A stretch of DNA of 64,000 bases from a virus, in UHGV virus genome UHGV-0170778; one strand, written 5' to 3'. The position numbers and the translations under genes are program-made. Shown here piece by piece: positions 4,027 through 41,666 of this stretch. Under the pieces are notes generated by a model, which ran no database searches, was not told where the DNA came from, and saw only the letters and a list, made by a program, of their open reading frames with translations. Every line of letters begins with the position of its first letter. Within the stretch, counting starts at the first letter, position 1.

Positions 4027-4035
4027 TTCGTTATA

Positions 4036-4108
4036 TATGTTGAAGAGGGACACCGACGGCCATCGTTGCTTTGCTTCCTTGACAAGTTAAGCTAACCTCT
4101 TCAACATA
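4036..4108 (+). other. 13-bp perfect inverted repeat with about 47-nt GC-rich loop directly after sheath gene stop
   Basis: tatgttgaagagg ... cctcttcaacata. Loop gggacaccgacggccatcgttgctttgcttccttgacaag is conspicuously GC-rich for this genome. No T-run follows. Confidence 0.45.
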
Positions 4109-4135
4109 CATATATATTAGATTATAGGAGATATT

Positions 4136-4468
4136 ATGAAAATATACGCAAAGCAAGTAAATTCAGATTATCAACTTTTGTATCAACTTTTCTTAGATGC
4201 ACTAGAAGATAAAGTTCGTTCTTATGGTAAAGACATCTTAGATGATATGTTGTCTCCGATTGATCAGTACAACAATTCATTTATAGTAAAAGATGGAAGA
4301 TACATACATGTAATTGAGGTAAAACGAGAAGATGGTAGTAGGTTTATCTTAAAGTACTATAAAGAAGACGAATTGAAATATATTGATTATTACAAGTCAG
4401 CAGAAAAGGCAGCTATTGCATGGTACTCAAAAATTGTGTATCCAGAAATATCTAAAAATAGATATTGA
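4136..4468 (+). CDS. hypothetical protein
   Basis: 110-aa ORF, GGAGAT RBS. Confidence 0.45.
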   Translation: MKIYAKQVNSDYQLLYQLFLDALEDKVRSYGKDILDDMLSPIDQYNNSFIVKDGRYIHVIEVKREDGSRFILKYYKEDELKYIDYYKSAEKAAIAWYSKIVYPEISKNRY

Positions 4469-4497
4469 TATGTGTAGACAATAGAAAGTTATGATAT

Positions 4498-5034
4498 ATG
4501 GTAATAAACAAAATATTAACTAAAATAAAAATATATGATGTAAATGAATTTGCTCACAAAGTGTATGAGAATTATGAATATTTTAATAAGCTTTGTAGAC
4601 AATTAGCGGATGCTTTAGGGTACATGGTAGATGCTAATATCAGATATTCGGACAGTTCTATTGAATTTATACAAGATGACGCAGGAGGGCACCTAATCAT
4701 TAGTATAAATGTTAAATACATTTCAGGGAACAAATATCTGGAGAATTCCACCTATTATAAAGACACAGAGTGTTATGTGGAAAGGATAGGCGATACTTTT
4801 AAGATAATATTCCCATTTGTAAGAATGAATGTAGTACCTGAAAACATACCTCATAGCCAAATTCGAAACTTTAATTTTTTTGTAAATTATTTTGTAGAGA
4901 GTTTTCTTTATTGCTATTTGGGATATAGTTCTTTTACTTTTGATATCTATGACGCATTAGAATCACGTTATGCAGATATTGATCAAAGACGACGAGAGAT
5001 AATTAGTTATAAAAATAGATTTATGGAGGAATAA
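4498..5034 (+). CDS. hypothetical protein
   Basis: 178-aa ORF. Confidence 0.45.
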   Translation: MVINKILTKIKIYDVNEFAHKVYENYEYFNKLCRQLADALGYMVDANIRYSDSSIEFIQDDAGGHLIISINVKYISGNKYLENSTYYKDTECYVERIGDTFKIIFPFVRMNVVPENIPHSQIRNFNFFVNYFVESFLYCYLGYSSFTFDIYDALESRYADIDQRRREIISYKNRFMEE

Positions 5035-5036
5035 AA

Positions 5037-5423
5037 ATGAAAATATATATTAAATGTAATAGTTCTGACTTTAAGATTTCTTATAGAGGAAATTACAATC
5101 TGGATAACAAGCTAGTAAGTAAAGATAAATTCATAAATGATATGAAGAATTTCTTTGCACGTGTTTTACCTGATTTTGGAATCTATTCTGTTATAATCAG
5201 CAATGCAAAATTGGATATGAATATAACAGACACAGATGTAAAAGGTTTTAATTTTGAAGAAGATGACAGATTAGGTATTTCGTTCAATATTTCTGCAAAC
5301 GGTCAAAAATTGAACGTTTCTACAGAATATGTATATGTTGATGATGAATTTGTAAATGCAGATGATATATATGACAGAACAGATGAAGCTCAAGAGATAG
5401 GAGAATTATTGTCTGGTGAATAA
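5037..5423 (+). CDS. hypothetical protein
   Basis: 128-aa ORF, GGAGGAATAAAA RBS. Confidence 0.45.
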   Translation: MKIYIKCNSSDFKISYRGNYNLDNKLVSKDKFINDMKNFFARVLPDFGIYSVIISNAKLDMNITDTDVKGFNFEEDDRLGISFNISANGQKLNVSTEYVYVDDEFVNADDIYDRTDEAQEIGELLSGE

Positions 5424-5473
5424 ATAAATCAAAAAGAGCTATTGTAGCTAAATAAAATAAAGGATTACGCAAA

Positions 5474-5656
5474 ATGAAAATATATACATCTAGATGGGTA
5501 GATAAACCTGGGGAGATGTTAGATTTAGGTAATAAATTAGCTGATTTATTTGTTACTACTAATATACATGAATATCTCAGTGAAGATGAAATGGATCAGA
5601 TAGCAGAAGTTTCAGATATGCTAAAAGATGTTGCTAAGTTGATGAAAGAAAAATAA
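5474..5656 (+). CDS. hypothetical small protein
   Basis: 60-aa ORF, AAGGAT RBS. Confidence 0.4.
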   Translation: MKIYTSRWVDKPGEMLDLGNKLADLFVTTNIHEYLSEDEMDQIAEVSDMLKDVAKLMKEK

Positions 5657-5683
5657 TTTAGTGTATATAGCCGAATAGCCCAA

Positions 5684-5716
5684 GCAGCAAGACTTTGATC
5701 TTGCTGCTGTTTCTAT
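5684..5716 (+). terminator. rho-independent terminator (cassette copy 1)
   Basis: 9-bp stem gcagcaaga/tcttgctgc, 6-nt loop, followed by tgtttctatatt. Confidence 0.6.
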
Positions 5717-5746
5717 ATTAAAACATTAAGAAACTATTAAGATCTA

Positions 5747-5775
5747 TTGAAATTAGGTCAATATTTCGTTATAAT
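5747..5775 (+). promoter_or_regulatory. sigma-A-type promoter (cassette copy 1)
   Basis: TTGAAA - 17 bp - TATAAT. Part of a conserved approximately 60-bp element aaaacattaagaaactattaaga...tcaatatttcgttataatat. Confidence 0.6.
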
Positions 5776-5825
5776 ATGTATGTGTAAAGTAGATAAATTG
5801 ATACACACAGGGAGAAAAATACAAA

Positions 5826-6692
5826 ATGGATACAAATGTTGACTATGAGAATCTGAAAGAAATTACAGTAAACACACAAGAAGAATTAAACAGAATACCG
5901 CTTGATTTCAAAGGAAGAATTTATGTAGAGTTTGGTACTTATGATAATCCAGCTATTGTTGAGAATGAGTATAGTTTAAGGGTTGTTGCTAGAAAAGGTT
6001 CATGTATAGAAGCTAGAAAAGACGCATATGTTGAGGCTGAAGATAAATCAATGGTTATTGCTCGAGAGGAGTCCAATGCAGTTGCGAATGATAATTCAAG
6101 CATTGAGGCTCGAGATAATTCAAAAGTTTATGCATATAATACTTCAAGAATTGTTGCTTGGGGTCGTTCAAGAGTTTTCTCTGAGGATGATGCAATCATT
6201 GAAGCTCGAGAGCATTCGACAGTTAAAGCTTGGAAGAGGTCAATCATCGCTGCATATGATAGGTCAACCGTCATTGCTTACAATAAGTCTAGTGTTGTTG
6301 CTTGGGGTAAGTCAAAAGTTCATTCTGAGAATAGATGCAGCGTTGAGACTCATGATCAGTCAAAGGTGACTGCGTTAGGGTATTCAAAAGTTGAGGCATA
6401 TGATCAGTCAACTGTTCAAGCTTATCAACAGTCAGACGTTGTGTCCTATGATAATTCAGTTGTTGTTGCTAAAGAGTCAGCAATCGTTAATTCTTATGAT
6501 AATTCAATCGTTGTTGCTAATGGGCATTCAAGCGTAGAGGCTGAAGGAAAATCATTAGTTACTGCTCATAACAATTCTAGCGTTGTTGCTCGTGACAATT
6601 CAGACGTTACGGCTATGGATGATTCAACTGTTGAGTCCTATGATAATTCAACTGTTGAGCTTCGCGATAATGCACAGCTGGTCAATGCGTAA
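5826..6692 (+). CDS. octapeptide-repeat protein (about 28 tandem 8-aa repeats, consensus S-x-V-x-A-x-[DN]-x)
   Basis: 288 aa. From about aa 55 the protein is an uninterrupted array such as SRIVAWGR SRVFSEDD AIIEAREH STVKAWKR SIIAAYDR STVIAYNK ... First gene after cassette copy 1. Confidence 0.6.
   Translation: MDTNVDYENLKEITVNTQEELNRIPLDFKGRIYVEFGTYDNPAIVENEYSLRVVARKGSCIEARKDAYVEAEDKSMVIAREESNAVANDNSSIEARDNSKVYAYNTSRIVAWGRSRVFSEDDAIIEAREHSTVKAWKRSIIAAYDRSTVIAYNKSSVVAWGKSKVHSENRCSVETHDQSKVTALGYSKVEAYDQSTVQAYQQSDVVSYDNSVVVAKESAIVNSYDNSIVVANGHSSVEAEGKSLVTAHNNSSVVARDNSDVTAMDDSTVESYDNSTVELRDNAQLVNA
5990..6692 (+). repeat. degenerate 24-bp tandem repeat array (coding)
   Basis: DNA-level periodicity underlying the octapeptide repeats. 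Also generates a spurious periodic ORF in another frame (6028..6369). Confidence 0.6.
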
Positions 6693-6740
6693 AGTTTGTA
6701 GGTAAATATATAAGCAGTCAGGACATTATATTTAACAAAA

Positions 6741-6773
6741 GCAGCAAGAAATTGATCTTGCTGCTATTTTTAT
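6741..6773 (+). terminator. rho-independent terminator (cassette copy 2)
   Basis: Same 9-bp stem gcagcaaga/tcttgctgc, loop aattga, then tatttttat. Confidence 0.6.
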
Positions 6774-6804
6774 GTCCAAAATATTAAAAAACTATTAAGA
6801 ACAC

Positions 6805-6833
6805 TTGAATTTATATCAATATTTCGTTATAAT
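6805..6833 (+). promoter_or_regulatory. sigma-A-type promoter (cassette copy 2)
   Basis: TTGAAT - 17 bp - TATAAT. Flanks are near-identical to copy 3. Confidence 0.6.
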
Positions 6834-6867
6834 ATATGTGTAATAAAAGATAGCGGAGGTTAATATT

Positions 6868-7062
6868 ATGTCTACTCTAAAAGAATTATATAAAACAGAG
6901 AAGGGTTTCGACAAAGGTGCAACTCTTTCAGTTTATGAATACTCAGACGGAAGTATACATTATACTTTTCGTGATAGACTTGGAAAACCTTCTAATGTAG
7001 ATGGTCACAATGAAGCAGAATTTCTGATTGAAACTTTTAATATGCAGAAACAGAATGCATGA
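6868..7062 (+). CDS. hypothetical small early protein
   Basis: 64 aa, GGAGGT RBS, first gene after cassette copy 2. Confidence 0.45.
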   Translation: MSTLKELYKTEKGFDKGATLSVYEYSDGSIHYTFRDRLGKPSNVDGHNEAEFLIETFNMQKQNA

Positions 7063-7295
7063 AGATTGATTTTTGGAAAGGAGAAAGCACAATGCCAAGA
7101 GTATTGACAGTGGACGGTAGTGTAAAAATCGGAGCATACAGTTTTCCTGATAGGAAAAAGCCCTGTATATGTGTCGAGAAAGGAAACGCTTGTGTTGTGT
7201 ACGGCTCTTTCATTGATATTGACCGTGCAAAAGAATTTATGGATGAACTCGCAGCTCTTGTGGGTGCGAGGAATGATAAGGAGGACGAAGAATGA
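7059..7295 (+). CDS. hypothetical small protein
   Basis: 78 aa, ATGA overlap, GGAGAAAG RBS. Confidence 0.45.
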   Translation: MKIDFWKGESTMPRVLTVDGSVKIGAYSFPDRKKPCICVEKGNACVVYGSFIDIDRAKEFMDELAALVGARNDKEDEE

Positions 7296-7462
7296 CAAAC
7301 TACGAGCGAATAAAAAATATGAGCATTGATGAAATGGCGAACGCCATAAAAAAAGGCCATTTCGGAGACCCGTGTGAGCATTGTTCTTTAAGAAACGAAC
7401 CATGTGCATTCTTATGTGTTAAGGGTATTTTAATGTGGCTTAATAGTGGGTTGAAGGAATGA
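7292..7462 (+). CDS. small Cys-containing protein, tandem paralogue of 7459..7650
   Basis: 56-aa ORF below the track cutoff: MTNYERIKNMSIDEMANAIKKGHFGDPCEHCSLRNEPCAFLC... It shares MTN[YF]ERIKNMS[IV]DEMA with the next gene. ATGA overlaps on both sides. Confidence 0.45.
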   Translation: MTNYERIKNMSIDEMANAIKKGHFGDPCEHCSLRNEPCAFLCVKGILMWLNSGLKE

Positions 7463-7650
7463 CGAATTTTGAGCGAATCAAAAATATGAGTGTTGATGAA
7501 ATGGCATCCGAGATTGATAGAATTTCTCATTATTTATGTGATGATTACGGAGGTTACGGATGTAAAGAATGTCCATTTAATTTTTTAGAAAATCGAAATT
7601 GTAATGCAACAGAATTTGCAAACTGGCTCAATAGTGAGGTAAAAGAATGA
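7459..7650 (+). CDS. small Cys-containing protein (paralogue of 7292..7462)
   Basis: 63 aa, MTNFERIKNMSVDEMASEI..., CDDYGGYGCKECPF. Confidence 0.5.
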   Translation: MTNFERIKNMSVDEMASEIDRISHYLCDDYGGYGCKECPFNFLENRNCNATEFANWLNSEVKE

Positions 7651-8018
7651 TAAATAAAACAATGTATGAAAAAGAAAAAGAAATTACTGACAAAATAGAT
7701 GCAAAAGAAGCAATAAAAATGTTTCAAAATCTTATATTTGCAGAAAATCATAGAATTGCAGAAAACCATTGTAGAAAACTTGCAATAAAAGCCCTTGAAA
7801 AGCAAACACCACAAAAGCCTATCAAAGAAACGGTAAATCGTGGTATATCAGCATCGGGCGAATATGACATTGATTTTAATTATCTTTGTCCAAATTGCAC
7901 GACTGTTGTTGGTGACTATGAAACCAATGATTTTTTTATAAATTTTGCCCCGAGTGTGGTCAAGCATTGGATTGGGGTAAGAGGCCTATTAATTATGAAA
8001 TTTATTTTCAAAATCTAA
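7647..8018 (+). CDS. hypothetical protein carrying the first half of a Cys4 zinc ribbon (CPNC)
   Basis: 123 aa. CPNCTTVVGDYETNDFF lies immediately before a T7 run at about 7931-7937. Confidence 0.45.
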   Translation: MINKTMYEKEKEITDKIDAKEAIKMFQNLIFAENHRIAENHCRKLAIKALEKQTPQKPIKETVNRGISASGEYDIDFNYLCPNCTTVVGDYETNDFFINFAPSVVKHWIGVRGLLIMKFIFKI

Positions 8019-8197
8019 CCGCTCTAATGAACAGGTATAACGACGATAATGAAAATTGCATTACATGCAAAGATTGTCTAAATTACGGGCCTTGTGCAGC
8101 CCCATTTAAGTGTGACGATAATACTAGCGTGTATTTCTGTGATGAATTTGTAAACAAAAATTGCAGTGATATTGAGTTAAAGGAGAAAACAAAATGA
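7967..8197 (+). CDS. hypothetical Cys-rich protein; its frame is open from 7931 and begins with the second zinc-ribbon half (CPEC)
   Basis: Track ORF starts at a TTG. The same frame upstream reads FFYKFCPECGQALDWGKRP... with a TGA immediately before the T7 run. Contains CITCKDCLNYGPC. Likely expressed by a -1 shift from 7647..8018, or the two ORFs are split by a homopolymer error. Confidence 0.4.
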   Translation: MDWGKRPINYEIYFQNLTALMNRYNDDNENCITCKDCLNYGPCAAPFKCDDNTSVYFCDEFVNKNCSDIELKEKTK

Positions 8198-8415
8198 GTA
8201 ATCTCACGCTTAACAACGGCTGGATTAGTGTAAATGACAGACTACCGGACACAAGTAGATATGTGATTGCGTGTTCCGATTTACAAGACGTATTCGAATG
8301 TTGGTATCGCACCATAGACAAATGTTGGGTAAGACACGGCCATATAGTTGTTGAAAACATTACGCATTGGCGAGAACTACCTGACCCGCCGATAATGGAG
8401 GAGAGCAAAGAATGA
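8194..8415 (+). CDS. DUF551-like small phage protein
   Basis: NGWISVNDRLPDTSRYVIAC matches the W-I-S-V-x-D-x-LP signature of DUF551. Paralogue at 8774..9046. Confidence 0.5.
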   Translation: MSNLTLNNGWISVNDRLPDTSRYVIACSDLQDVFECWYRTIDKCWVRHGHIVVENITHWRELPDPPIMEESKE

Positions 8416-8522
8416 CTTGTAAAGATTGTCCACATTTTGATGTGTGCAAAATGTATGGTGCATTCCATACAAAGACACGCTGGAAATCATCGGCAACATC
8501 CACGATAATCCCGAATTGTTGA
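8412..8522 (+). CDS. very small CxxC protein (MTCKDCPHFDVCKMY...)
   Basis: 36-aa ORF with ATGA overlap. It shares its N-terminal motif with the 10226..10627 product. Confidence 0.3.
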   Translation: MTCKDCPHFDVCKMYGAFHTKTRWKSSATSTIIPNC

Positions 8523-8773
8523 AAGGAATAAAAAATGTTTAACTATAAAAAAGCCATACAGAGATATAGAGTTGCTAAAATTTTTGGATTACCTTTTAAG
8601 TTACGCATTAAAGTGTTTTTCAGGGGCAAAGGAACTCCAAAAGAAAATTTTGAAAAAAAGATAATTAATCATAAAAAAGGAGAGCAGGAATGACAGATGA
8701 AGATGAAATCAATATTGACATCGATTGCTTATAAGCAATGCTTATATATGCAAAACTGGAAAGGAGTAGAAGA

Positions 8774-9046
8774 ATGAACTTAAATTTTGCTGACATTATT
8801 AAAGACACAAAACTTATTAACCGTTTCTTAAAATGCCACGATGACAGCATTTTAACAGATAACGGTTGGATTAGTGTAAACGACAAACTTCCAAATAACG
8901 ATGAAGACGTAATTGCGCTGTCTGATTCTGGAGATTCACTTGTCTGTCGATATAATAATGATATGAAGCGTTGGGAAAAGTACGGTTTTACATTAGATAT
9001 GAATTTTATTTATTGGAGAGAACTGTACAAATACAGAAAGGATTAA
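8774..9046 (+). CDS. DUF551-like small phage protein (paralogue of 8194..8415)
   Basis: Start moved to the ATG preceded by AAGGAG. NGWISVNDKLPNNDEDVIALSD. Confidence 0.5.
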   Translation: MNLNFADIIKDTKLINRFLKCHDDSILTDNGWISVNDKLPNNDEDVIALSDSGDSLVCRYNNDMKRWEKYGFTLDMNFIYWRELYKYRKD

Positions 9047-9050
9047 GTCA

Positions 9051-9425
9051 ATGACCAACAAAGAAAGAAAACAGACCGGTCTGTTGCATTCAGCAGATGA
9101 ACTGAAACGGCTCATTTTAGAACACCAAGAGTTGCCGATTTTGGTACTTGCCGGAGATAATGCGAACACTGGCGACTATGGCTTTATGAGTTGTAGCCGT
9201 GTACGCGCACAAGAAGGCGAGTTTCTTGATTGTAAGCAGAAAATCGACGCATGCAAGTGCTACACAGATAGGGATGACTTTGAAGACGATGTGGCAGATT
9301 TTTTGGCTGGTGAAGAACAGTATAGAGATTTGCCGGACGATGAATTTAATGCCCTCGTTGAGCAAACAGTCAATGAGTACGATGATTTTTGGAAGCCATG
9401 CATTCTATTGCATGTAGACAATTGA
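9051..9425 (+). CDS. hypothetical acidic protein
   Basis: 124-aa ORF. Confidence 0.45.
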   Translation: MTNKERKQTGLLHSADELKRLILEHQELPILVLAGDNANTGDYGFMSCSRVRAQEGEFLDCKQKIDACKCYTDRDDFEDDVADFLAGEEQYRDLPDDEFNALVEQTVNEYDDFWKPCILLHVDN

Positions 9426-9436
9426 GGAGGATTAAC

Positions 9437-9616
9437 TATGATGCTCTCATGTAATCGATTTGCGTTTATTCCACATTTGTGTCTTGAATGCAAACGTTAT
9501 ATTTGGCTTGAGGGATATAGAAGAGCTGAAGTTTGGAAAAAATCTGTAGATATGAACATCAAAGAAAATATTTGCAAAAGTTGTCTAGAAAAATTTGATG
9601 TTGGGATTGATAAATG
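9437..9616 (+). CDS. small zinc-ribbon-like protein
   Basis: 59-aa ORF below the track cutoff with GAGGAGG RBS. CLECKRY...CKSC. Confidence 0.35.
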
Positions 9617-9627
9617 AAAGGAGAAAA

Positions 9628-9807
9628 ATGGCTGACAAATTTGTTATTTGCAATAACGAAGACGAAATAAGATCGAATGAATCATGTTATGGTAATCAAA
9701 CATTTGAAATTTCGGCAAAAGATCTTATAGCTCTTTTTGAAGGAAAGACACTTGCTGCAATGGTAAATGATGAATACGGTATATTTATTGAAATAGAGCC
9801 AACTTAG
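9628..9807 (+). CDS. hypothetical small protein
   Basis: Start at MADKFVICNN with AAAGGAG RBS (the track start at 9595 lacks an RBS). Confidence 0.4.
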   Translation: MADKFVICNNEDEIRSNESCYGNQTFEISAKDLIALFEGKTLAAMVNDEYGIFIEIEPT

Positions 9808-9850
9808 AATCTCAAGGAGAATCAAGCATGAAATTTATAGAGGTAGAAGA

Positions 9851-10027
9851 ATGAAAGCAGGAGCACATAGAAAAAAGTATAAGTATATACCGCCTGAAAA
9901 GAGAGTAAGCAAAAAAGAGCAAGAAAGGATAATGCGTAGGGAGCTTCGTAAAGCTATGCGAAAAGCAAGTCCGTTTTATGCTTGGGTTGAAGATAATTGT
10001 GAAAGGTATTTTGATGATGAAGTGTGA
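9851..10027 (+). CDS. small basic protein
   Basis: 58-aa ORF below the track cutoff, MKAGAHRKKYKYIPPEKRVSKKEQERIMRRELRKAMRK... Confidence 0.3.
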   Translation: MKAGAHRKKYKYIPPEKRVSKKEQERIMRRELRKAMRKASPFYAWVEDNCERYFDDEV

Positions 10028-10229
10028 AAATTGTATTCATTTTGAGCTTTGTCCTGTGTGGGACAAGGATAACAATCGCCCTTATAAAGACGGCTATAGT
10101 TATTTCTGTCAAAATTACAGTAGATTCATAGATAAATCGCAAATAATCAAGTTACCTATGAAGACAACAGATAAACTGAAAGAAGAATTAACAAAATACT
10201 GTTACGAAAGGTGTGTTGATGAGTTATGA
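10014..10229 (+). CDS. small CxxC protein (MMKCENCIHFELCPV)
   Basis: Start moved to the internal Met, overlapping the upstream stop. A member of the CxxC-x-H[YF]-x-xC small-protein family. Confidence 0.4.
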   Translation: MMKCENCIHFELCPVWDKDNNRPYKDGYSYFCQNYSRFIDKSQIIKLPMKTTDKLKEELTKYCYERCVDEL

Positions 10230-10627
10230 CTTGCAAAGATTGTTACCACTATGGTGTATGCAAATTTTATAATAAGAATTTACCAGAAGAATATGACCAT
10301 ATTGAGTGGCAATGCGACAGTTTCAAGGACAAATCATGCATTGTTGAATTGCCCTGTAAGGCTGGGGAAACAGTATATTGTCTTGATGACATTGTAGATA
10401 ATGAATTATGTGCTGACTGTGAACACTATTATGAGGGTGGTATGGGTGATTATCCGAGTTGTCAAAAAACTCGTTATGGTTTTAGACCTGCAAAATGTAT
10501 CGAAATTATCGAGATAGTCGCAGATAATGATTTCGTGTTGAAATATTACAACGAGTTTGGTGAAAAAATATTTCTCACCAAAGAGGAAGCAGAAGCAAAA
10601 CTGAAGGAGTTGAACGGAAATGAATAA
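10226..10627 (+). CDS. Cys-rich protein (MTCKDCYHYGVCKFY ... CADCEHYYEG)
   Basis: 133 aa, ATGA overlap. Confidence 0.5.
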   Translation: MTCKDCYHYGVCKFYNKNLPEEYDHIEWQCDSFKDKSCIVELPCKAGETVYCLDDIVDNELCADCEHYYEGGMGDYPSCQKTRYGFRPAKCIEIIEIVADNDFVLKYYNEFGEKIFLTKEEAEAKLKELNGNE

Positions 10628-10826
10628 AGAATTAGCAAGATATTTTGTGAAATTGATTGCGGAAGATTTGCAATTTTCATTCAATGGGATGGGTATTCCA
10701 AGTTATCTTTGTGAATGGTTAGAAAATCAGTTAATACAAGAAAATTATGATGAAGTCGAAGAATTTATAAAGAAAAGATATGACGAACGCGAAAGCACAA
10801 GAAAGAAAACACGTGATGAAACTTAA
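10620..10826 (+). CDS. hypothetical small protein
   Basis: 68-aa ORF. Confidence 0.4.
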   Translation: MNKELARYFVKLIAEDLQFSFNGMGIPSYLCEWLENQLIQENYDEVEEFIKKRYDERESTRKKTRDET

Positions 10827-10864
10827 AATTATTGATAGCTTAAAATCAAGGAGGTAAGTTAGCT

Positions 10865-11326
10865 TTGGAAATAGATGAAATGAAATATTTCCTTAGTAAT
10901 GAACTAAGTGAACTTTCAGATATAACAGGGATGTACTTTGATATTCAGTCAGTTGTATATCGAGAAAATTTACATATATGCATTCAAAAATTAAAGTTAA
11001 GGGCATTTCATCAAGATATCTGCTTTGAATGTAAACTAGACATAAACAATGCAATAGCACACTTTGCTTCTTTGATAGCTATGTGCTATGTTATAGATGG
11101 TGAATATTTATATGAAACAGACAGCTTACTTTATGCTAACCAATTCAAAGCACAAAAATTCGTCATCGAAGTTGTAGATAAGTTCAATGAAATATACAAC
11201 AACTGCAAAGATGTAGAAAAGAGCATAAACGCACTTGAAGCATTTTATGAAACAAACTATGAAGTAAACACACAGGTTGACGATGAAAGATCATTTAGTA
11301 TGAGTAAGGATAATAGTGAACTATGA
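10865..11326 (+). CDS. hypothetical protein
   Basis: 153-aa ORF, AGGAGGTAAG RBS. Confidence 0.45.
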   Translation: MEIDEMKYFLSNELSELSDITGMYFDIQSVVYRENLHICIQKLKLRAFHQDICFECKLDINNAIAHFASLIAMCYVIDGEYLYETDSLLYANQFKAQKFVIEVVDKFNEIYNNCKDVEKSINALEAFYETNYEVNTQVDDERSFSMSKDNSEL

Positions 11327-11438
11327 CACATTAGATGCGTTGTTGTACAGAGTATGTCTACTATATTGCAATGCAAGACTAAAGTATTCATATATGTACA
11401 TAGAAATGACCAGGTAAATTACCTGTTCTGTATTTTTG

Positions 11439-13091
11439 TTATTTTACATATGCATAAACAGCTTGACCACAATCATAAACAGGTAACCATCCGTGATCAA
11501 TCATCAATTCTTCATTTGAGGTTCCTTTTCCGTAATCTGTGTTGAAAAGTTGATCGTATCCTCGTTGACGTAAGAGATTTGCAGTTATTTTATTATTCTC
11601 CAACGACCATATTTCTTGAGGAGGTGTATTCTTAACAAAATGCATACCTAATTTGCTATAAACAGATCCGTCAAATTTAGATAAATCACAATAGGAAATT
11701 ATATTGTTCAGATGATAATGAGAGACGGCGTATTTGAAGAGTTTTGAAGCCCCGCCAGTAATTTTATATCTACTGTTTGAGCAAAGTCGAAGAAGTTCAT
11801 ATTGATAGTTTCTATTATATCTAGAATTACCAAAAGTCATCACTTCAACAAGTTCTCCTTTATACATCAATCCTACTCGAATATTCTGTCCTTTACATGT
11901 ATTCTGGATATGATACTTACATAAGAATTCGTCGCATTCTTTCTTACCTATCTCTACAATTTTGCAGTTACGGGCATATATAACTTCTTTCTTTGTCAAT
12001 AGCTGGATGACTTTGTCCCAGTTATCCCAATCAAAGATATGAATACATCTGAATCCGTTTTCTTTAGCAATATTAGTCTTCTCTAAATGGTAACCTTTAT
12101 CTACAGTAACATTCCAATGGTTTCCAACAATGTTGTGAGTATAAGTAGGATCAATTTCTATTAGAATGTTAGTGTCAAGTATGTGTAAGTCGTAAAATTT
12201 TCCACTTAGATAAAATTCTAACTCTCCGTTTTCATTTGCTGCTTTTACAGCATCTAAAAATTTCAAATTTGTTTTAGATATCCTGTTTTTTCTGCACTGA
12301 GCGTCATTTGTCAAGCAGCCATAAGGAACTCCGTATTTCTTCATACATGTTTCTTGTATTTTCATTTGAATTGTTTCAGATTTTGAAGGGTTATCTACTC
12401 CTAAGTGTTCGATCCAAGTCTGCTTTGCTTTTTCGTCTATTTCGTCAGGCCAAAAAGACCCATAGTTCGCTATTCTATGTTCCATAGCTATTTTATTTAT
12501 TGATTCCACCTGCATTGGATTTTCTTTTCCATATCGTTCCATCATTGTTTGTTTTGCTTTTTCTGTAAATTGATCTATTTTAGATGGATTAGCTTTGCCA
12601 TACTTTGCCTCCATAGTTGCTTTGTATTTATCATATAACTGTTTACTCTGTAAAGTAGTAGGAGCACCGTATCGTTCAGTCATAGTTTTCATTGATTTTT
12701 TCTTTATTTCTGGATCGCTCAATGCCCAGTCAACACCAAATTTCTTCTGGTTAGATGCTTTTGCTTTTTCATAAAATTGATCTGATTGCAAAGCAAATTC
12801 AACACCATACTTATCTTTCATAGATTTTCTGTGATGAGCTTGAACTTCTTTGTTTTGCATAGGATGATCTACACCATATTTTTCTCTACATCTCATCTTT
12901 CGTAATTGAGCTTTACATTCTTTGGAACACGGAGGAGGCTGTTGTCTTGAATTCCATATCATTTGTTTACCACAAACAGGGCAAGGAACATAATGATCGT
13001 CATTACATATTTTAGTAGAACTTCTTTCTGGCATAAATATTTTGCCACATATAACACATTTCTTCGGACTCTTTGGAACACCTTTAGGCAT
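11439..13091 (-). CDS. homing-endonuclease-like protein, paralogue A
   Basis: The only substantial minus-strand gene. Architecture: zinc ribbon (CVICGKIF ... CPVCGK), about 9 tandem approximately 33-aa [KR]YG[VA]xxPxQ repeats, PD-(D/E)xK core (ILIEIDPTYTHN ... YHLEKT ... GFRCIHIFDWDNWD), and a conserved C-terminal domain. Start moved to MPKG. Confidence 0.65.
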   Translation of the reverse strand: MPKGVPKSPKKCVICGKIFMPERSSTKICNDDHYVPCPVCGKQMIWNSRQQPPPCSKECKAQLRKMRCREKYGVDHPMQNKEVQAHHRKSMKDKYGVEFALQSDQFYEKAKASNQKKFGVDWALSDPEIKKKSMKTMTERYGAPTTLQSKQLYDKYKATMEAKYGKANPSKIDQFTEKAKQTMMERYGKENPMQVESINKIAMEHRIANYGSFWPDEIDEKAKQTWIEHLGVDNPSKSETIQMKIQETCMKKYGVPYGCLTNDAQCRKNRISKTNLKFLDAVKAANENGELEFYLSGKFYDLHILDTNILIEIDPTYTHNIVGNHWNVTVDKGYHLEKTNIAKENGFRCIHIFDWDNWDKVIQLLTKKEVIYARNCKIVEIGKKECDEFLCKYHIQNTCKGQNIRVGLMYKGELVEVMTFGNSRYNRNYQYELLRLCSNSRYKITGGASKLFKYAVSHYHLNNIISYCDLSKFDGSVYSKLGMHFVKNTPPQEIWSLENNKITANLLRQRGYDQLFNTDYGKGTSNEELMIDHGWLPVYDCGQAVYAYVK

Positions 13092-13139
13092 ATAATAAAT
13101 CTCACTTTCAATATTATTATTAAATATAAGGTACATATA

Positions 13140-13168
13140 ATATAACGAAATTCAAAAACGAATTGAAA
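13140..13168 (-). promoter_or_regulatory. diverged minus-strand copy of the cassette promoter, driving paralogue A
   Basis: The minus strand reads TTTCAA - 17 bp - TTATAT within tttcgttatattatatgt, one mismatch from the cassette tttcgttataatatatgt. Confidence 0.4.
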
Positions 13169-13219
13169 CCTTATATACTCATAGAACAACAAAGTTAAAA
13201 ATATAAAGGAGATTTATAT

Positions 13220-13765
13220 ATGTTTACACCATTAGCAATGGGAACAAATCACATGTTAGGCGTAGATTCTTATGTCCCCCTAACAACAAACAACTTTGAA
13301 ATTCGAGTGTATAACATGGATGGAAGTGTACCAACAGAATTCTCAGAATTGTTAACATTGAGCACTGATGAAATTGGAGCTATCCAGGAAGAAGAAGATC
13401 AGATCGTTGTACATTATGGAAATGGTCTAATCAAATTCCCGAGTAAAGTATCTTTCAACGATGTAGACTGGACATTGAATTGCTATTGCTCTCCTAATGT
13501 TTATGAAAATCTTCGTGCTTGGAGAAAAATGGTTTATGATCCTGATACAGAGAGAATGGGTCTTCCTACGGAGTATATGAAGCAAGTCTATTTCATTAGA
13601 TATGATGGCCAAGGAAATTGCAGAGATGTAATTAAGTGTCCAGGCTGCTGGCCAGGAGCTCTCAATAATGGTTCCATGAACCAGACTGGTGGTGAACTAG
13701 TTAAAGTAAGTTTGCCGCTAGTTATTTCCAGAGTCATCTACTTGAAACCTGAAGATTTTCAGTAA
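13220..13765 (+). CDS. hypothetical protein
   Basis: 181-aa ORF between the two endonuclease paralogues, GGAGAT RBS. Confidence 0.5.
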   Translation: MFTPLAMGTNHMLGVDSYVPLTTNNFEIRVYNMDGSVPTEFSELLTLSTDEIGAIQEEEDQIVVHYGNGLIKFPSKVSFNDVDWTLNCYCSPNVYENLRAWRKMVYDPDTERMGLPTEYMKQVYFIRYDGQGNCRDVIKCPGCWPGALNNGSMNQTGGELVKVSLPLVISRVIYLKPEDFQ

Positions 13766-13848
13766 TTGAAGTCAAAATTTACAGTCAAGGCAAGCTAAGG
13801 AACATAACCTTTTATCTATTCGTTATATAGATAGGAGGTTATGTTTTT

Positions 13849-15408
13849 ATGATCAAAAAATGTAAGATATGCGGAAAAGAGTTTGAAGCATATGGTACTT
13901 CTGAATATTGCCCAGGCCCTCACTATAAAAAATGTGCTGTTTGTGGTAAAGAGTTTGAATGGGATAGATTGCATCCTAAGAAATGTTGTTCGAGGAAATG
14001 TGCAGCAGCTCTTCGACTTTCTACTATATCATCAGAAACAAGAATATGCGAACTTTGTGGGAAAGAATTTCATCCTAATAATAGTACGCAAAAATACTGT
14101 AAAGATGATCATTACAGACCTTGTCCTGTGTGTGGGAAACCAATTAAAATAACTGAAGACACAAGCATTACTTCTTGTTGTTCTGTTGAATGTAGTAATG
14201 AGCTTAGAAAGAGGACATGTATTGATAAATATGGAGTTCCTATTGTATCTCAGAATGACGAAATACGACAGAAATTGAGTCAAGCTTCAATAGAATCAGA
14301 AAATAAGAGAAAAGAAACATGTATCAAACGATATGGAGTTGAATTCGCTTCTAAATATTCTGAGGTTAGAAGAAAAATATCGAATACAGTTAAAAGCAAA
14401 GAATGTCAAAGTAGAATTAGAAATACGACACAACACAAGTATGGAGTTCCGTTCGTAATGCAATGCGAAGAAGGATTATCTAGATATAGAAAAACAATAG
14501 AATCTAAATATGGAGTTCCATATTTTTGTATGACAGATAAATGCAAAGACTCGCAAGGGAAAGTAATTTCGACTCTAAATAAAAGTTTTGGAAACTTATT
14601 GAGTCAAAATAACATACCATATACATTTGAATACAAGATAGAGAATAGATCGTATGATATTTGCGTCCCTGGATCAAAAACACTGATCGAAATTGATCCT
14701 ACATATACTCATAATGTTATTGGAAATTGTTGGGGACCTGGCTTAGAGATCAATTATCATATAGAGAAGACAAAATTAGCAAATGAATATGGATTCAGGT
14801 GTATTCATATTTGGGATTGGGATGATTGGGATAAGATAATAAATATCATCAGGCCAAAATCCGTCATATATGCTAGAAAATGTAAAATAAGTGTGATTGA
14901 TCGAAAAACAGCAGAATCTTTTGAAATTGATAATCATTTACAAGGCGCTGTAAAAGGACAATCTATTTGCTTAGGTCTATTTTATTGCAATGATCTAGTA
15001 CAGGTCATGACTTTCGGTAAACCTAGGTACAATAAAAACTACGATTGGGAACTGCTTAGACTCTGTTCCATTTCTGATTATGCAGTTGTAGGCGGAGCAG
15101 AGAAGCTATGGAAATATTTCATAAGTAGACATGTATCAGATTCAGTTATTTCTTATTGTGATTTGTCTAAATTCAAAGGAGATGTTTACACGAGATTAGG
15201 TATGTCCTTAGACTTTGTAAACGAACCCAATAAAATATGGTCTAAGAAATCTGAAATGATAACCAATAACTTACTCCTTCAACGAGGGTACGATCAATTA
15301 TTCAATACAAATTATGGAAAGGGGACCTCAAACGAAGAATTGATGCTGGAACACGGATGGTTGCCGGTTTATGATTGTGGTCAAGCAAGATATACATGGA
15401 GTAATTGA
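13849..15408 (+). CDS. homing-endonuclease-like protein, paralogue B
   Basis: Two tandem approximately 60-aa Cys zinc-ribbon modules (CKICGKEF..CAVCGKEF..CCSRKC, CELCGKEF..CPVCGK..CCSVEC), 4 KYGV repeats, LIEIDPTYTHN...YHIEKTKLANEYGFRCIHIWDWDDWD, and C-terminal IYARKCKI...NHLQG...VVGGAEKL. Confidence 0.65.
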   Translation: MIKKCKICGKEFEAYGTSEYCPGPHYKKCAVCGKEFEWDRLHPKKCCSRKCAAALRLSTISSETRICELCGKEFHPNNSTQKYCKDDHYRPCPVCGKPIKITEDTSITSCCSVECSNELRKRTCIDKYGVPIVSQNDEIRQKLSQASIESENKRKETCIKRYGVEFASKYSEVRRKISNTVKSKECQSRIRNTTQHKYGVPFVMQCEEGLSRYRKTIESKYGVPYFCMTDKCKDSQGKVISTLNKSFGNLLSQNNIPYTFEYKIENRSYDICVPGSKTLIEIDPTYTHNVIGNCWGPGLEINYHIEKTKLANEYGFRCIHIWDWDDWDKIINIIRPKSVIYARKCKISVIDRKTAESFEIDNHLQGAVKGQSICLGLFYCNDLVQVMTFGKPRYNKNYDWELLRLCSISDYAVVGGAEKLWKYFISRHVSDSVISYCDLSKFKGDVYTRLGMSLDFVNEPNKIWSKKSEMITNNLLLQRGYDQLFNTNYGKGTSNEELMLEHGWLPVYDCGQARYTWSN

Positions 15409-15929: not shown

Positions 15930-15942
15930 TTAAAATCAAAAC

Positions 15943-15975: not shown

Positions 15976-16006
15976 GTCCAAAATATTAAAAAACTATTAA
16001 GAACAC

Positions 16007-16268: not shown

Positions 16269-17099
16269 TTGAAAGGAGTATTACACATGACTAAAACAGA
16301 ATTGAGAGAGGTACTCGATTTGCATCAGAAATGGCTGAATCTTGAAGACGATGGAGTCAGAGCTAATCTGCATGATTGTGATCTAAGTGGTGCTGACTTG
16401 CAAGGTGTAGATTTAAGTAGGGCTAACCTGCTGAGAGCAAATCTACACGGAGCTGATTTACGAGGAGCATATTTAGGTGGGTGTAACTTGTATGAAGCTG
16501 ATCTCAGTTGCGCAGATATGCAAGGAGCTATCTTTCACAATGCTAACTTTACAGGAGCTAACCTTCGAGAATCAAATCTAAGCGGTTCTGATATGTTTTT
16601 AGCTAACTTGAAGAGAGCAAATTTGCAAAAAGCTAATTTAGTAGAAGCAGACCTATTTCAAGCTAACTTGAAGAGAGCAAATTTGCGTGAATCTGACTTG
16701 CGTGAAGCTAACCTAGTAGGGGCTGACTTACGGGGAGCAGATTTGCGTAGTGCAAGAAATGTACCTTTCATTCCTCTCATTTGTCCGGAAAAGGGTGAAT
16801 TTACTTCTTTCATTAGATGTGGTGACTATATTGTAGAACTTTTGATTCCAGCTGACGCTAAACGGTTTTCTGCAACCACAAGAAGATGCTGGGCAAATTA
16901 TGCTAAAGTTCTGTCAATCACAACATTGTCTGGAGACCCTGTCGAAACGATTAGTGTAACAGATACTGAAGTTTCTCCAAACATTGTATACACAGTCGGA
17001 GAATTTGTATATCCGAATTACTTTAGTGATGACCGGTGGGACGAATATTACGGTGGTATCTATTTTTTCATCAATCGACAAGAAGCTGTAAACCATTGA
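16269..17099 (+). CDS. pentapeptide-repeat protein
   Basis: About 27 consecutive A[DN]LxG-type pentapeptides (ANLHD CDLSG ADLQG VDLSR ANLLR ANLHG ADLRG ...), then an approximately 110-aa non-repeat C-terminus. GAAAGGAG RBS. Confidence 0.75.
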   Translation: MKGVLHMTKTELREVLDLHQKWLNLEDDGVRANLHDCDLSGADLQGVDLSRANLLRANLHGADLRGAYLGGCNLYEADLSCADMQGAIFHNANFTGANLRESNLSGSDMFLANLKRANLQKANLVEADLFQANLKRANLRESDLREANLVGADLRGADLRSARNVPFIPLICPEKGEFTSFIRCGDYIVELLIPADAKRFSATTRRCWANYAKVLSITTLSGDPVETISVTDTEVSPNIVYTVGEFVYPNYFSDDRWDEYYGGIYFFINRQEAVNH

Positions 17100-17118: not shown

Positions 17119-17307
17119 ATGAATAAGGAATATCGTTATGGTATGCTACACAGACCTTACGGTATTGGATGTCAACCTAGTAAAGGTCTAATTCTCGCTT
17201 ACGGTGAATATCCAAACTTCGGCAAGAAGTATTTCAGTGTATTAGTATACGACAGAAAATTGACTAAGAAAGAAATTGACGAATATGAACTGGAGGAAAT
17301 CAAATGA
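17119..17307 (+). CDS. hypothetical small protein
   Basis: 62 aa, AAAGGAGAAAA RBS. Confidence 0.4.
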   Translation: MNKEYRYGMLHRPYGIGCQPSKGLILAYGEYPNFGKKYFSVLVYDRKLTKKEIDEYELEEIK

Positions 17308-18044: not shown

Positions 18045-18830
18045 ATGCCAGTATCAGAAAAAATTCAGCTTCTAGGAAAAGGAATGTACAAAGACATTCC
18101 AGATGAGCTGACACTAAACGCAATCCCAACATCTGCTGAACTTGATTATGTAGGTGGAGATGATTTTGACAAAACAATGATTGAAAAAATCTTCCCACAA
18201 GCGATTACAGAAGACATTAACTTCAGCGAACTACTTCAAATAGATTATCAGTGGATCTGTAGATGTTTAAGAATTCTAAATTATGGTCCATATCATACAA
18301 CAAATAACATCATGTGTTCAGCTTGTGGAGAAGTATCCTCCGGAGAATATCAAGTAGACCTAAGAACAGTAAATTGTGTTCCAATCCCTGCTGGAACAAA
18401 GAATGAATTCCAGTTAACAAAAGAAAGCTTCATCGACTTCGACGGAGAAATCACATTCAAGATGTTAACAATGAAAGAGCTCTTTGCATCACAGCAAGAT
18501 AAGACATTTGCAAACAAAGATGGATCCATCAACAAACAGCTTTCCAGAATCTGTTATATGATTAAGTCATTCAAAGGAAAAACAGGTATGCTTCCACTTG
18601 AAGTAAAAACACTTATCAACAAGAAGCTATCACCTGCTGATTTCGTAATCTTGAGAAACAAGATGGATGAGATGACTGACTTCGGTCTAAGAGCAGGAGG
18701 AACATGTACTTGTCCAAAATGCGGAAATACAACAGCAGCATATCTTGCTCTAGTAGATGAAAGATTTTTTCGCCCGACCGTGGGAGATCTCTACGCATGG
18801 AGAGACGATCCAGATCGCAGGAAAGACTAA
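18045..18830 (+). CDS. putative tail assembly chaperone
   Basis: 261 aa with Cys pairs. It overlaps the next ORF in another frame, just upstream of the tape measure gene. AGGAGAAAAACAAA RBS. Confidence 0.4.
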   Translation: MPVSEKIQLLGKGMYKDIPDELTLNAIPTSAELDYVGGDDFDKTMIEKIFPQAITEDINFSELLQIDYQWICRCLRILNYGPYHTTNNIMCSACGEVSSGEYQVDLRTVNCVPIPAGTKNEFQLTKESFIDFDGEITFKMLTMKELFASQQDKTFANKDGSINKQLSRICYMIKSFKGKTGMLPLEVKTLINKKLSPADFVILRNKMDEMTDFGLRAGGTCTCPKCGNTTAAYLALVDERFFRPTVGDLYAWRDDPDRRKD

Positions 18831-38674: not shown

Positions 38675-40000
38675 ATGGCAAAGAATAATTCTATATTAGG
38701 CACATTCAGCGGTGAATGCGCCGATTCTGCTATTACTAACTTGAATGGGATGGACATTAGCAGAGAAGTATTTGAAAAACTATTTGAGTCTGATGAATAT
38801 AAAAAAGCATTAGAGTGTAAACAGTACATCGGATTTTTAGGACATCCAGAAGACCCTGATTGTCAAGATTACAAAGATGCTTGCATTACAATGACAGATT
38901 GCAGAATTGATGATGACGGCAAAGTTTATGGTGATTTTGATCTAATTGACACACCTACAGGACGAGTTGTAAAGGCATTTATCGACGCAGGTGTAAAGTT
39001 TGGCATTTCTATCAGAGGTGCAGGCGACTTAATTGGAAATTCAGTAGACCCAGATACTTTTGTATTTAGAGGCTTTGACTTAGTTTCATTTCCTGCTTAT
39101 CCAGACGCTATTCCTACATTTACAGAAATAGCAGCTTCAACAGATATGCAAAAACGAAAGAAATATCAGAAAGTATGCAAGTCACTTAAAGATAACCTAT
39201 CTTCTATTACAAGTTCCTCTGCAATAGATGTAATGAAGTCTCAATTTGCTCCACAGTCTGATGAATATAAATCACTTCAAGATAGAGAAGATGAACTTTC
39301 TAAAAATTCTGTAGTTGATATAGATGACGATATGGAAGAAATCTATGCAGAAAAAGTTCGTGACTTAGTAGATGCTTATGTAGAAGAGCACGAAAAAGCA
39401 GAGTCTGCTCTATCCGAACTTGATAGAGTTAGAAAAAGATCAAAGGATGAGCTTGATCAGTCTCAGAGAGTATCTAACCGCATAAAAAGAATTGCAAGTT
39501 CTCAGCTTGCTTCTGTTAAACAAGAAGTTGTAAAAGCAAATAAACAGATAGATTCTTTGAAATCTAAAATAATTGCAACCAGAAATGCCAACCTTATATA
39601 CGAACAAGAGATAGAGAAACAGAAGAAAAAGATTTCTGAACAGACACAGATTATTTCTAGTTTGAAGGCTTATCGCTCTGAAACCGTCTTAGCGAAAAAA
39701 GAACTTCAGTCTAGAACATCTAACTTAGATGCAGAGAATAAGAAGTTGATGTCAGAAAAAGCATCTCTTGAAAAGGTAATCGCAAGTTACCAAGACGCAT
39801 TTGCTAGCTTATATGCGTTAAACATCGGTGCTAATCTAAATGATTCTGTTACAGTAACTGCTTCAACAAGTGTACAAGAGTTAAAATCTATGATAAACAA
39901 ATGTTCACATGGTAAGCAGATTTCGAAATCAAATTCAGTATATGCTTCAGCTTCAATAGAAGATGTAGCAGATAATGACGAAAATTTGATTTGTCTATGA
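38675..40000 (+). CDS. putative prohead protease / scaffolding fusion protein
   Basis: The N-terminal approximately 150-aa domain (LGHPED ... GVKFGISIRGAGD) resembles the His/Ser region of HK97-type prohead proteases. The C-terminal approximately 250 aa is charged coiled coil (scaffold-like). It sits immediately upstream of the capsid candidate. Confidence 0.45.
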   Translation: MAKNNSILGTFSGECADSAITNLNGMDISREVFEKLFESDEYKKALECKQYIGFLGHPEDPDCQDYKDACITMTDCRIDDDGKVYGDFDLIDTPTGRVVKAFIDAGVKFGISIRGAGDLIGNSVDPDTFVFRGFDLVSFPAYPDAIPTFTEIAASTDMQKRKKYQKVCKSLKDNLSSITSSSAIDVMKSQFAPQSDEYKSLQDREDELSKNSVVDIDDDMEEIYAEKVRDLVDAYVEEHEKAESALSELDRVRKRSKDELDQSQRVSNRIKRIASSQLASVKQEVVKANKQIDSLKSKIIATRNANLIYEQEIEKQKKKISEQTQIISSLKAYRSETVLAKKELQSRTSNLDAENKKLMSEKASLEKVIASYQDAFASLYALNIGANLNDSVTVTASTSVQELKSMINKCSHGKQISKSNSVYASASIEDVADNDENLICL

Positions 40001-41564: not shown

Positions 41565-41598
41565 TAGCTGCTCTTTCATTAGGGCAGCTATTTTTATG
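41565..41598 (+). terminator. rho-independent terminator after capsid gene
   Basis: tagctgc / gcagcta stem, followed by tttttatgtg. Confidence 0.45.
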
Positions 41599-41666
41599 TG
41601 TAAATTTCGTTAAATAACCTTTATTAAATCGTTATAATAGTTGTAATGGTAGTAAAGGTGGTTTAT

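Follow-up and report, generated by a model that had tools for sequence, protein, structure and literature searches.

Three paralogous genes in the window

The 64,000-nt stretch of UHGV virus genome UHGV-0170778 analyzed here, hereafter the window, contains three intact open reading frames (ORFs), designated hefA, hefB and hefC (copies A, B and C), whose products are most probably ordinary new members of the so-called Hef-like, EDxHD-type free-standing homing endonucleases, carried in this case by an uncultured myovirus. The probability of this reading is put at roughly 0.78. The three genes, each with its supporting evidence, are as follows.

11439..13091, minus strand: hefA, Hef-like homing endonuclease gene, 550 amino acids (aa); ORF, PHROG 3339 (E 1.6e-87), DUF7487 (E 7e-34)
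13849..15408, plus strand: hefB, Hef-like homing endonuclease gene, 519 aa; ORF, PHROG 3339 (E 9.6e-71), AlphaFold2 model with a predicted local distance difference test (pLDDT) score of 93.2
41667..43280, plus strand: hefC, Hef-like homing endonuclease gene, 537 aa; ORF, PHROG 3339 (E 3e-106)

An initial annotation, made from the letters of the DNA alone, had described three diverged paralogues at these positions, and this description is confirmed by the intact ORFs and by pairwise identities of 39% between hefB and hefA (E 6e-125), 30% between hefB and hefC (E 6e-58) and 29% between hefA and hefC. Furthermore, tblastn searches with the window proteins and three reference proteins as queries returned exactly three Hef copies in the window. 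The longest-ORF limits are 11439..13136 (minus strand), 13849..15408 (plus strand) and 41646..43280 (plus strand). The shorter starts at 13091 (hefA) and 41667 (hefC), which had already been selected in the initial annotation, are preferred over those at 13136 and 41646 because each is preceded by a Shine-Dalgarno-like ribosome-binding site (GTGAG and AAGGTGG, respectively), while none is present at the upstream ATG codons; an independent gene call, made on an ENA contig of the same phage, also gives 550 aa for hefA. The anatomy that had been proposed for the genes is largely right, in that four modules, i.e., a zinc module, an array of KYG repeats, a nuclease core and a C-terminal domain of ~185 aa, are common to all three.

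Assignment to the Hef-like homing endonucleases

All three proteins match PHROG 3339, annotated as 'homing endonuclease', essentially end to end (470-530 profile positions) at the E-values listed above. Relatives were found by tblastn in 361 isolate-phage records, with hosts that include Vibrio, Campylobacter, Acinetobacter, Klebsiella, Escherichia and Dickeya among others, and these relatives carry annotations such as 'Hef-like homing endonuclease', 'homing endonuclease EDxHD' and F-LimIII. Over the nuclease and the whole C-terminal domain, the window proteins are collinear with proteins of Shigella phage vB_SdyM_006, Klebsiella phage Muenster and Campylobacter phage PC5, and the motif series YD...IE[IF][DN]...H[NS]...YH..K...G..[LI]H[IV][FW], followed by IYARKC...NH.QG...FGK.R...ELLR.C...VVGGA.KL...SY.D...Y..LG...DCG, is common to the window proteins and the annotated Hef-like proteins. 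The family is large, with more than 4,493 scored homologues of hefB and a size of ~13,000 clusters at 50% identity.

Taylor et al. (2011, PMC3239194) had already counted Hef-type phage endonucleases among the Vsr-like EDxHD enzymes, a family founded by I-Bth0305I. According to a review of T4 mobile elements, the Hef protein of phage U5 cleaves nrdB, which is also the target gene of T4 MobE (PMC2988022). Phage LIMEstone1 possesses four Hef-like genes, one of which adjoins the tail tube gene (PMC3296691).

The homing-endonuclease-like nature of the genes, as put forward in the initial annotation, is thus supported by PHROG 3339 and by the Hef-like homologues. The same annotation had further considered them to represent an undescribed homing-endonuclease family, for which it could be argued that Pfam and NCBIfam give no family name beyond a DUF (an NCBIfam search of the window Hef proteins returned no match) and that single-sequence and profile searches of the PDB returned zinc-finger noise only, with neither 3R3P nor Mom among the hits. 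Against this stand the full-length PHROG match, the homologues annotated as Hef-like or EDxHD, the earlier placement of Hef in the EDxHD family (PMC3239194) and the BFVD structure matches, in which the same fold architecture recurs in many viral proteins called homing endonuclease or endonuclease-like; a new family is accordingly hardly credible. The PDB sequence searches being uninformative, structure prediction and Foldseek were needed, and the structure comparison, run on the nuclease and the C-terminal domain, returned 3R3P/Vsr and Mom/GNAT folds, respectively. The label 'HNH endonuclease' (PHROG 559 and 1271) was rejected: matches to these profiles begin at profile position ~144-175, the N-terminal ~150 residues being absent here. 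A Pfam HNH domain was likewise not found in the window Hef proteins.

The nuclease domain

The nuclease domains are located as follows.

11997..12296, minus strand: hefA Vsr/EDxHD-like nuclease (YDL...LIEIDPTYTHN...YHLEKT...GFRCIHIFDWD); alignment to hefB, fold taken from the hefB model
14554..14853, plus strand: hefB Vsr/EDxHD-like nuclease, aa 236-335; model, Foldseek, column counts
42363..42707, plus strand: hefC nuclease domain; alignment to hefB and annotated relatives

The hefB nuclease domain models at a pLDDT of 93.8, and as modelled it has a Vsr-like fold: the first Foldseek hit is 3R3P, the catalytic domain of I-Bth0305I (E 1.7e-4, template modelling (TM) score 0.68-0.70, root-mean-square deviation 2.9 A, 21% identity), and the second is Vsr (1CW0/1VSR). 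Among the 68 sequences in which conservation was counted, D270, H288 and K307 are invariant, while E281, H304, D323 and D325 are nearly so. The Vsr/PD-(D/E)xK-like core claimed in the initial annotation is supported by the Foldseek hits. The HefB segment 'YD270...LIEID283PTYTH288' aligns without gaps to 'PD51...VIFTH64GCFWH69' of Vsr and with one indel to 'D196...LAIEVN208GVYWH213' of I-Bth0305I. In this alignment, D270 is equivalent to Vsr D51 and I-Bth0305I D196, D283 to H64 and N208, and H288 to H69 and H213, while E281 and K307 correspond to E206 and K225 of I-Bth0305I and have no counterpart in Vsr. The metal-binding Asp (D196, or D51 in Vsr) and the general-base His (H213, or H69) of EDxHD enzymes are thus both matched, by D270 and H288. 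Position 283 is Asp in 38 and Asn in 29 of the 68 sequences, and therefore behaves as the variable 'x' of the EDxHD motif; it is Asp in hefA and hefB, and Asn in hefC.

Certain features of the active site weigh against a straightforward EDxHD assignment. The last acid of the motif (I-Bth0305I D222, Vsr D97), whose D222N substitution abolishes cleavage, has no clear equivalent, as a gapless alignment from G315 sets the highly conserved H304 at its place. A two-residue shift, based on sequence alignment only, would place it at position 306, which is occupied by Asp in 19, Glu in 18 and Asn in nine of the sequences, and by Met in hefC. For the first Glu (E170, or E25 in Vsr), the candidate equivalents by sequence are N244 or E261.

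In hefC, the nuclease motif reads IECNPTATHN...YHQMKT. Since position 283 is Asn and position 306 is Met, this protein is missing two acidic positions of hefA and hefB, and one or more of the copies, hefC especially, might consequently be decaying, nuclease-inactive relics kept by linkage only. However, Asn is native in the active I-Bth0305I (N208) and in 29 of the 68 relatives (43%), and the loss of Asp283 was for this reason rejected as a sign of inactivation. Moreover, all three ORFs are intact, hefC retains D270, E281, H288, H304 and K307, and it is the strongest PHROG 3339 match of the three, which makes decay distinctly improbable.

Zinc modules and KYG repeats

The modules that precede the nuclease were delimited in hefA and hefB as follows.

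12888..13073, minus strand: hefA zinc module (C2CH + C4, single copy); Cys/His pattern, weak YacG treble-clef match, alignment to hefB
13849..14223, plus strand: hefB two tandem zinc modules; Cys/His pattern, self-alignment, model
12297..12887, minus strand: hefA nine 23-aa [KR]YG helical repeats (DUF7487); Pfam, repeat count, alignment
14224..14553, plus strand: hefB four [KR]YG helical repeats (DUF7487); Pfam, repeat count, model

The N-terminal Cys-rich zinc module that had been described is present in all three proteins, with the pattern C-x2-C...C-x3-H followed by C-x2-C-G-K...C-S-x2-C (C-x2-C...C-x3-C). This arrangement suggests two zinc sites, C2CH and C4. The second appears to resemble a treble clef, given that a helix of the model begins at its final two ligands and that weak YacG/treble-clef Pfam matches were obtained. 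The tandem duplication noted for hefB is also confirmed (aa 1-62 and 63-125; 40% identity, E 1e-11), and in the hefB model these modules form beta-hairpins plus a helix.

The [KR]YG repeats number nine in hefA and four each in hefB and hefC. The initial annotation was correct as regards tandem [KR]YG units in four to nine copies, while its period of about 33 aa is to be replaced by one of 23 aa, hefB having two longer spacings of 34-36 aa. In the hefB model the repeats are helix-loop units. Pfam DUF7487 (PF24308) scores above its cut-off on this region in all three proteins (46.6-118 bits versus 27) and was found in 68 of 68 relatives.

Of note, hefC possesses an extra ~100 aa between the repeats and the nuclease, including a helix-turn-helix (HTH)-like stretch (PTLYELTSYIGVNESTVGVYI) within 42140..42360 (aa ~166-239). 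This stretch, for which no Pfam match was obtained, has no counterpart in hefA or hefB and is reminiscent of the NUMOD/HTH region of I-Bth0305I.

The C-terminal domain resembles Mom

The C-terminal domains have the following locations.

11445..11996, minus strand: hefA Mom-like GNAT domain (GGASKL; Ser at the place of Mom S124); alignments, profile
14854..15405, plus strand: hefB Mom-like GNAT domain, aa 336-519 (Glu at the place of Mom S124); Foldseek, hhalign, column counts
42708..43274, plus strand: hefC Mom-like GNAT domain (GGASKL); Pfam, alignments

A Foldseek search with this domain of hefB (~185 aa; aa 336-519 of the full-length model) returned phage Mu Mom (8BV8) as its first hit, with an E-value of 2.7e-8, followed by dozens of GNAT acetyltransferases. 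BFVD structure matches of the domain include standalone Mom and NAT_SF proteins. GNAT motif A follows the pattern R/Q-x-x-G-x-G/A, and VVGGAxKL is assigned to this motif because [R/K]-V-V-G-G-A fits it; the guess made in the initial annotation that this segment is a GNAT motif A is thus borne out by both the structural hits and the P-loop pattern.

The relationship to Mom was also examined by comparing a Mom profile built from 110 homologues with Hef C-terminal profiles of 67 and, later, 264 sequences using hhalign. Local alignments gave E-values of 8e-5 and 2e-4, in the same register both times; a global-mode alignment was dropped, since its second half was misaligned while the local register was consistent. 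Conservation of the Mom-mapped columns was counted over the 264 sequences: Mom H58, E108, R111 and Y159 correspond to Hef H363, E401, R404 and Y447, all 100% conserved, while W48, D149 and W181 correspond to F358 (98%), D438 (97%) and W464 (99%), respectively.

Mom is an anti-restriction enzyme that glycylates the N6 of adenine in double-stranded DNA using Gly-tRNA(Gly), for which R111, S124 and R151 are essential and W48, H58, Y59, D149, Y159 and W181 are important (PMC13219725). Its tRNA-dependent DNA aminoacyltransferase activity was described in a 2023 preprint and in Nat Commun 2026. R111 is specific to Mom and not general among GNATs (PMC7261163).

Several observations weigh against a close equivalence to Mom. 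The hhalign probability of the Mom match is only 60% and 44% for the two profiles. The place of Mom S124, i.e., Hef position 418, is Ser in 40% and Glu in 38% of the 264 sequences (S/E/N/Q overall), being Ser in hefA and hefC and Glu in hefB, while Mom R151 lacks a clean Hef equivalent, K441 (98% conserved) being located nearby. The Hef domain also has a canonical Gly-Gly-Ala P-loop where Mom has N-S-E, and the co-substrate may therefore differ. Finally, the Pfam Mom gathering score (PF25680, 27.1 bits) is not reached by any of the three proteins: hefC scores 26.6 bits (E 5.6e-6) and hefB 15 bits, while hefA gives no match. Pfam Mom matches 24 of 68 relatives at E<=0.01. Because of these sub-threshold scores, the domain is not filed under the Mom family and is called Mom-like.

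The C-terminal domain is the best conserved part of the proteins, with a mean pairwise identity of 57%, compared to 46% for the nuclease, 37-41% for the zinc modules and 33% for the repeats. This gradient points to a target-independent, probably catalytic or cofactor-binding role for the C-terminal domain, while target specificity would most naturally be sought in the variable zinc and repeat modules. The domain alone matches 13,454 cluster representatives (E<=1e-3), in nearly every case as the C-terminal part of proteins of 400-800 aa.

Our best guess, held at a little under even odds, is that the Mom-like domain is an active transferase, dependent on acyl-CoA or aminoacyl-tRNA, whose substrate would be a DNA base in the target or close to it; otherwise it would be a conserved non-catalytic nucleic-acid-binding or base-flipping module. 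In the latter vein, the proteins may be Hef-like homing endonucleases whose Mom-like domain is catalytically dead and serves only in dimerization, DNA clamping, base flipping or the binding of a host factor (tRNA). The lack of conservation at the S124 place, the lack of a clean counterpart of R151 and the Pfam scores of all three proteins are as such a reading would expect, and I-Bth0305I works without a domain of this kind (PMC3239194). Opposing it are the four pocket residues that are invariant and the three that are at least 97% conserved, the intact Gly-Gly-Ala P-loop and the fact that the domain is better conserved than the nuclease, which would be unusual for a mere scaffold. On balance, we regard a dead domain as quite possible, if short of probable. 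The window contains no tRNA genes, and there is therefore no local link to a tRNA co-substrate.

A literature search, of incomplete coverage, retrieved nothing that ties Mom or GNAT proteins to Hef, Vsr or homing endonucleases, or that describes DUF7487, and two papers on the mechanism of Mom (PMC13219725 and PMC7261163) make no mention of nuclease fusions. The Mom-like identity of the Hef C-terminal domain thus appears to be undescribed, in the sense that no description was found.

Variants of the domain organization were also observed. Some relatives (e.g., the set of P0029 (829 aa), P0243, P0244 and P0291) have two Mom-like domains per protein or are proteins of 133-300 aa comprising little else, and standalone Mom-like versions of 180-220 aa were seen in BFVD.

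Gene neighbourhood, mobility and expression signals

The structural genes in whose vicinity the hef genes are located are listed below.

2032..4026: tail sheath gene; conserved structural neighbour
13220..13765, plus strand: tail tube gene; PHROG 4542, 64-85% identical homologues in 40 viral contigs
38675..40000: head protease gene; conserved structural neighbour
40048..41511, plus strand: major head protein (capsid) gene, directly upstream of hefC; PHROG 138, homologues in contigs L041-L051

The tail tube gene is flanked by hefA, located directly upstream in divergent orientation, and by hefB, and it likely carries or adjoins their target sites. A megablast search of window positions 9000-20000 against isolate phages returned no match, which indicates that there is no close cultured relative, and the capsid protein is only 29% identical to that of the nearest isolate. 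The comparison was made with 51 related viral contigs (L numbers) that were fetched via the tube and capsid proteins and on which the window proteins were mapped. The tube junction is empty in three of these contigs (L009, L014 and L016), where sheath gene, tube gene and the homologue of ORF 18045..18830 follow one another with gaps of 20-50 bp. In the window, the sheath-to-tube gap is 9.2 kb (4027..13219) and holds hefA and ~14 small ORFs, mostly of unknown function, as against 20 bp in the three contigs, while the 4.3-kb gap between the tube gene and ORF 18045 holds hefB and small ORFs. Similarly, the capsid junction is empty in five contigs (L041, L043, L048, L049 and L050), in which homologues of ORFs 45661 and 46085 follow within 50-270 bp, while the corresponding insert of the window is 4.1 kb in length and consists of hefC and two ORFs.

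Other relatives possess one to four Hef-like genes at the tube and capsid junctions (four in L008, three each in L010 and L039). Orthologues of the hefA type (51-56% identity) are located upstream of the tube gene and divergent from it in L001, L011, L019, L025 and L039, those of the hefB type (50-57% identity) downstream of the tube gene in L008, L010 and L013, and one of the hefC type (43% identity) after the capsid gene in L042, so that each Hef lineage keeps its own position and orientation. The search for empty sites in related phages, which the initial annotation had proposed as a check of mobility, was thus positive at both junctions. Presence or absence at fixed junctions classically typifies free-standing homing endonuclease genes, and as read from the contigs this is the expected pattern, although ongoing homing is not thereby proven. 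As a point on the other side, the pattern could stem from deletion or from illegitimate recombination at repeated promoter cassettes.

The cassettes in question are of ~55 bp (AAATATTAAGAAACTATTAAGAAGACTTGAAATTATATCAATATTTCGTTATAATATA; TTGAAA-17-TATAAT) and occur in five near-identical copies before genes, at ~5721-5778, 6779-6836, 15981-16038, 43401-43458 and 57315-57372, those at 6824 and 16026 being identical over more than 70 nt. They could act as recombination substrates for the swapping of accessory cassettes around the Hef genes. Each of two pentapeptide-repeat proteins (16269..17099, also matching DUF5758, and 43837..44427) is encoded in a variable insert downstream of a Hef gene, where one of the repeated promoter copies precedes it; no tblastn match to either protein was obtained in any of the related contigs compared, compact ones included. 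In addition, a 62-aa ORF at ~17119..17307 corresponds to a Pfam DarA_C match in the ENA gene calls for this phage (L056 6271-6459), and the insert downstream of hefC encodes, at 44690..45076, a small protein with an N-terminal HTH (HTH_7 / sigma-70 region 4-like) and a zinc ribbon, which may be a regulator.

Signals close to the hef genes themselves are the following.

13140..13148, minus strand: TCGTTATAT promoter-like motif upstream of hefA; motif scan
13820..13828, plus strand: TCGTTATAT promoter-like motif upstream of hefB; motif scan, followed by an AGGAGG ribosome-binding site at ~13834-13839
41629..41637, plus strand: TCGTTATAA promoter-like motif upstream of hefC; motif scan
41565..41590, plus strand: terminator-like hairpin between the capsid gene and hefC; window scan

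The initial annotation had assigned each copy its own promoter. A scan for the sigma-70 consensus lends no support to this assignment, its matches being no commoner than in shuffled sequence. The motif TCGTTATAW (TCGTTATA[AT]), by contrast, is shared by all three genes at 20-45 nt upstream of the start, and it occurs ten times in the window versus 1.3 times expected, almost always just upstream of genes. An own promoter for each hef gene is therefore plausible, on the strength of a motif.

These observations also bear on the idea of a domesticated single-chain cut-and-modify system, comparable to a fused restriction-modification enzyme, which would exclude rival phages or shield the phage DNA against nucleases of the host and in which the Mom-like activity would be the main benefit. 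A nuclease and a modification-type domain are indeed united in one polypeptide, Mom itself acts in anti-restriction (PMC13219725), the genome carries three copies, each behind a phage promoter-like motif, and the family, with its 13,454 clusters, is very large. Yet the patchy presence of the genes, in zero to four copies and with the lineage at the same junction changing among close relatives, fits selfish turnover better, and the variable DNA-binding modules suggest many different targets; domestication is accordingly considered improbable.

Proposed mechanism and significance

We infer that the hefA, hefB and hefC products act in homing through site-specific cleavage. A long DNA target would be bound by the zinc modules together with the 23-aa KYG repeats in their variable array, a role given to these modules because they vary most, as specificity determinants should. 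The Vsr-like nuclease, judging from I-Bth0305I and phage U5 Hef, would then cut this target in relatives that infect the same cell and do not have the gene, and recombinational repair from the carrier genome would copy the gene into the junction beside the conserved structural gene, as the presence/absence data suggest. A transferase activity of the Mom-like domain, if present, might label the carrier genome or shield it, or might help in cleavage. That Hef-like enzymes are bifunctional, with a Mom-like domain that covalently modifies DNA at or near the homing site using acyl-CoA or a charged tRNA, is on present evidence unlikely, though by no means negligible.

As Hef-like homing endonuclease genes the three are routine, and they mark two recombination hot spots, i.e., the sheath-tube-next gene and capsid-next gene junctions, in an uncultured myovirus group. 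The residual interest resides in the family-wide Mom-like domain, which is the best conserved module and has an apparently intact pocket. Should Hef-like enzymes modify DNA, this would change the view of an endonuclease family and widen the range of phage DNA hypermodification enzymes. Bifunctionality would moreover couple a selfish nuclease to DNA modification, for example for carrier self-protection or to block re-cleavage or repair. Mom-type chemistry would thereby be known from a second biological setting, and homing would gain a new principle.

Comparison with known systems

With respect to the nuclease, the window proteins share the fold of I-Bth0305I and Vsr together with equivalents of D196/D51, E206, N208/H64, H213/H69 and K225, while D222 has no clear equivalent. 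I-Bth0305I is an intron-encoded protein of 266 aa that has NUMOD/HTH DNA-binding motifs and ends at its nuclease domain (PMC3239194), whereas the window proteins are free-standing, possess zinc modules and KYG repeats, and have an added Mom-like domain of 185 aa. Vsr differs from the window nucleases in that it nicks DNA at mismatches and has a zinc site within its nuclease fold.

With respect to the C-terminal domain, Mu Mom (8BV8; PF25680) is the best structural match, and the equivalents of its W48, H58, E108, R111, D149, Y159 and W181 are conserved; both Mom and Hef are, furthermore, phage proteins that act on DNA. Mom is a standalone enzyme of ~240 aa with its own translational regulator, Com, while the Hef domain is fused to a nuclease, has a GGA P-loop in place of N-S-E and S/E/N/Q at the S124 place, and remains below threshold in Pfam Mom.

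The closest likeness is to the Hef-like group itself, represented here by U5 Hef, F-LimIII/VII/VIII/X of LIMEstone1, the CP220/PC5 Hef proteins, the EDxHD protein of Klebsiella phage Muenster and PHROG 3339 (T4-like, Vi1-like, Campylobacter and jumbo phages). The window proteins differ from the isolate-phage members in sharing only 26-30% identity with them, in the duplicated zinc module of hefB, in a repeat number of 4-9, in the Asp at position 283 of hefA and hefB, which replaces the Asn of classical members, and in their carrier, an uncultured, distantly SPO1-like myovirus. In common with the known Hef-like proteins, they display the succession of repeats, nuclease and C-terminal domain with collinear motifs, and, as is the case for known Hef-like genes, those of the window are free-standing and located beside conserved structural or replication genes, including that of the tail tube.

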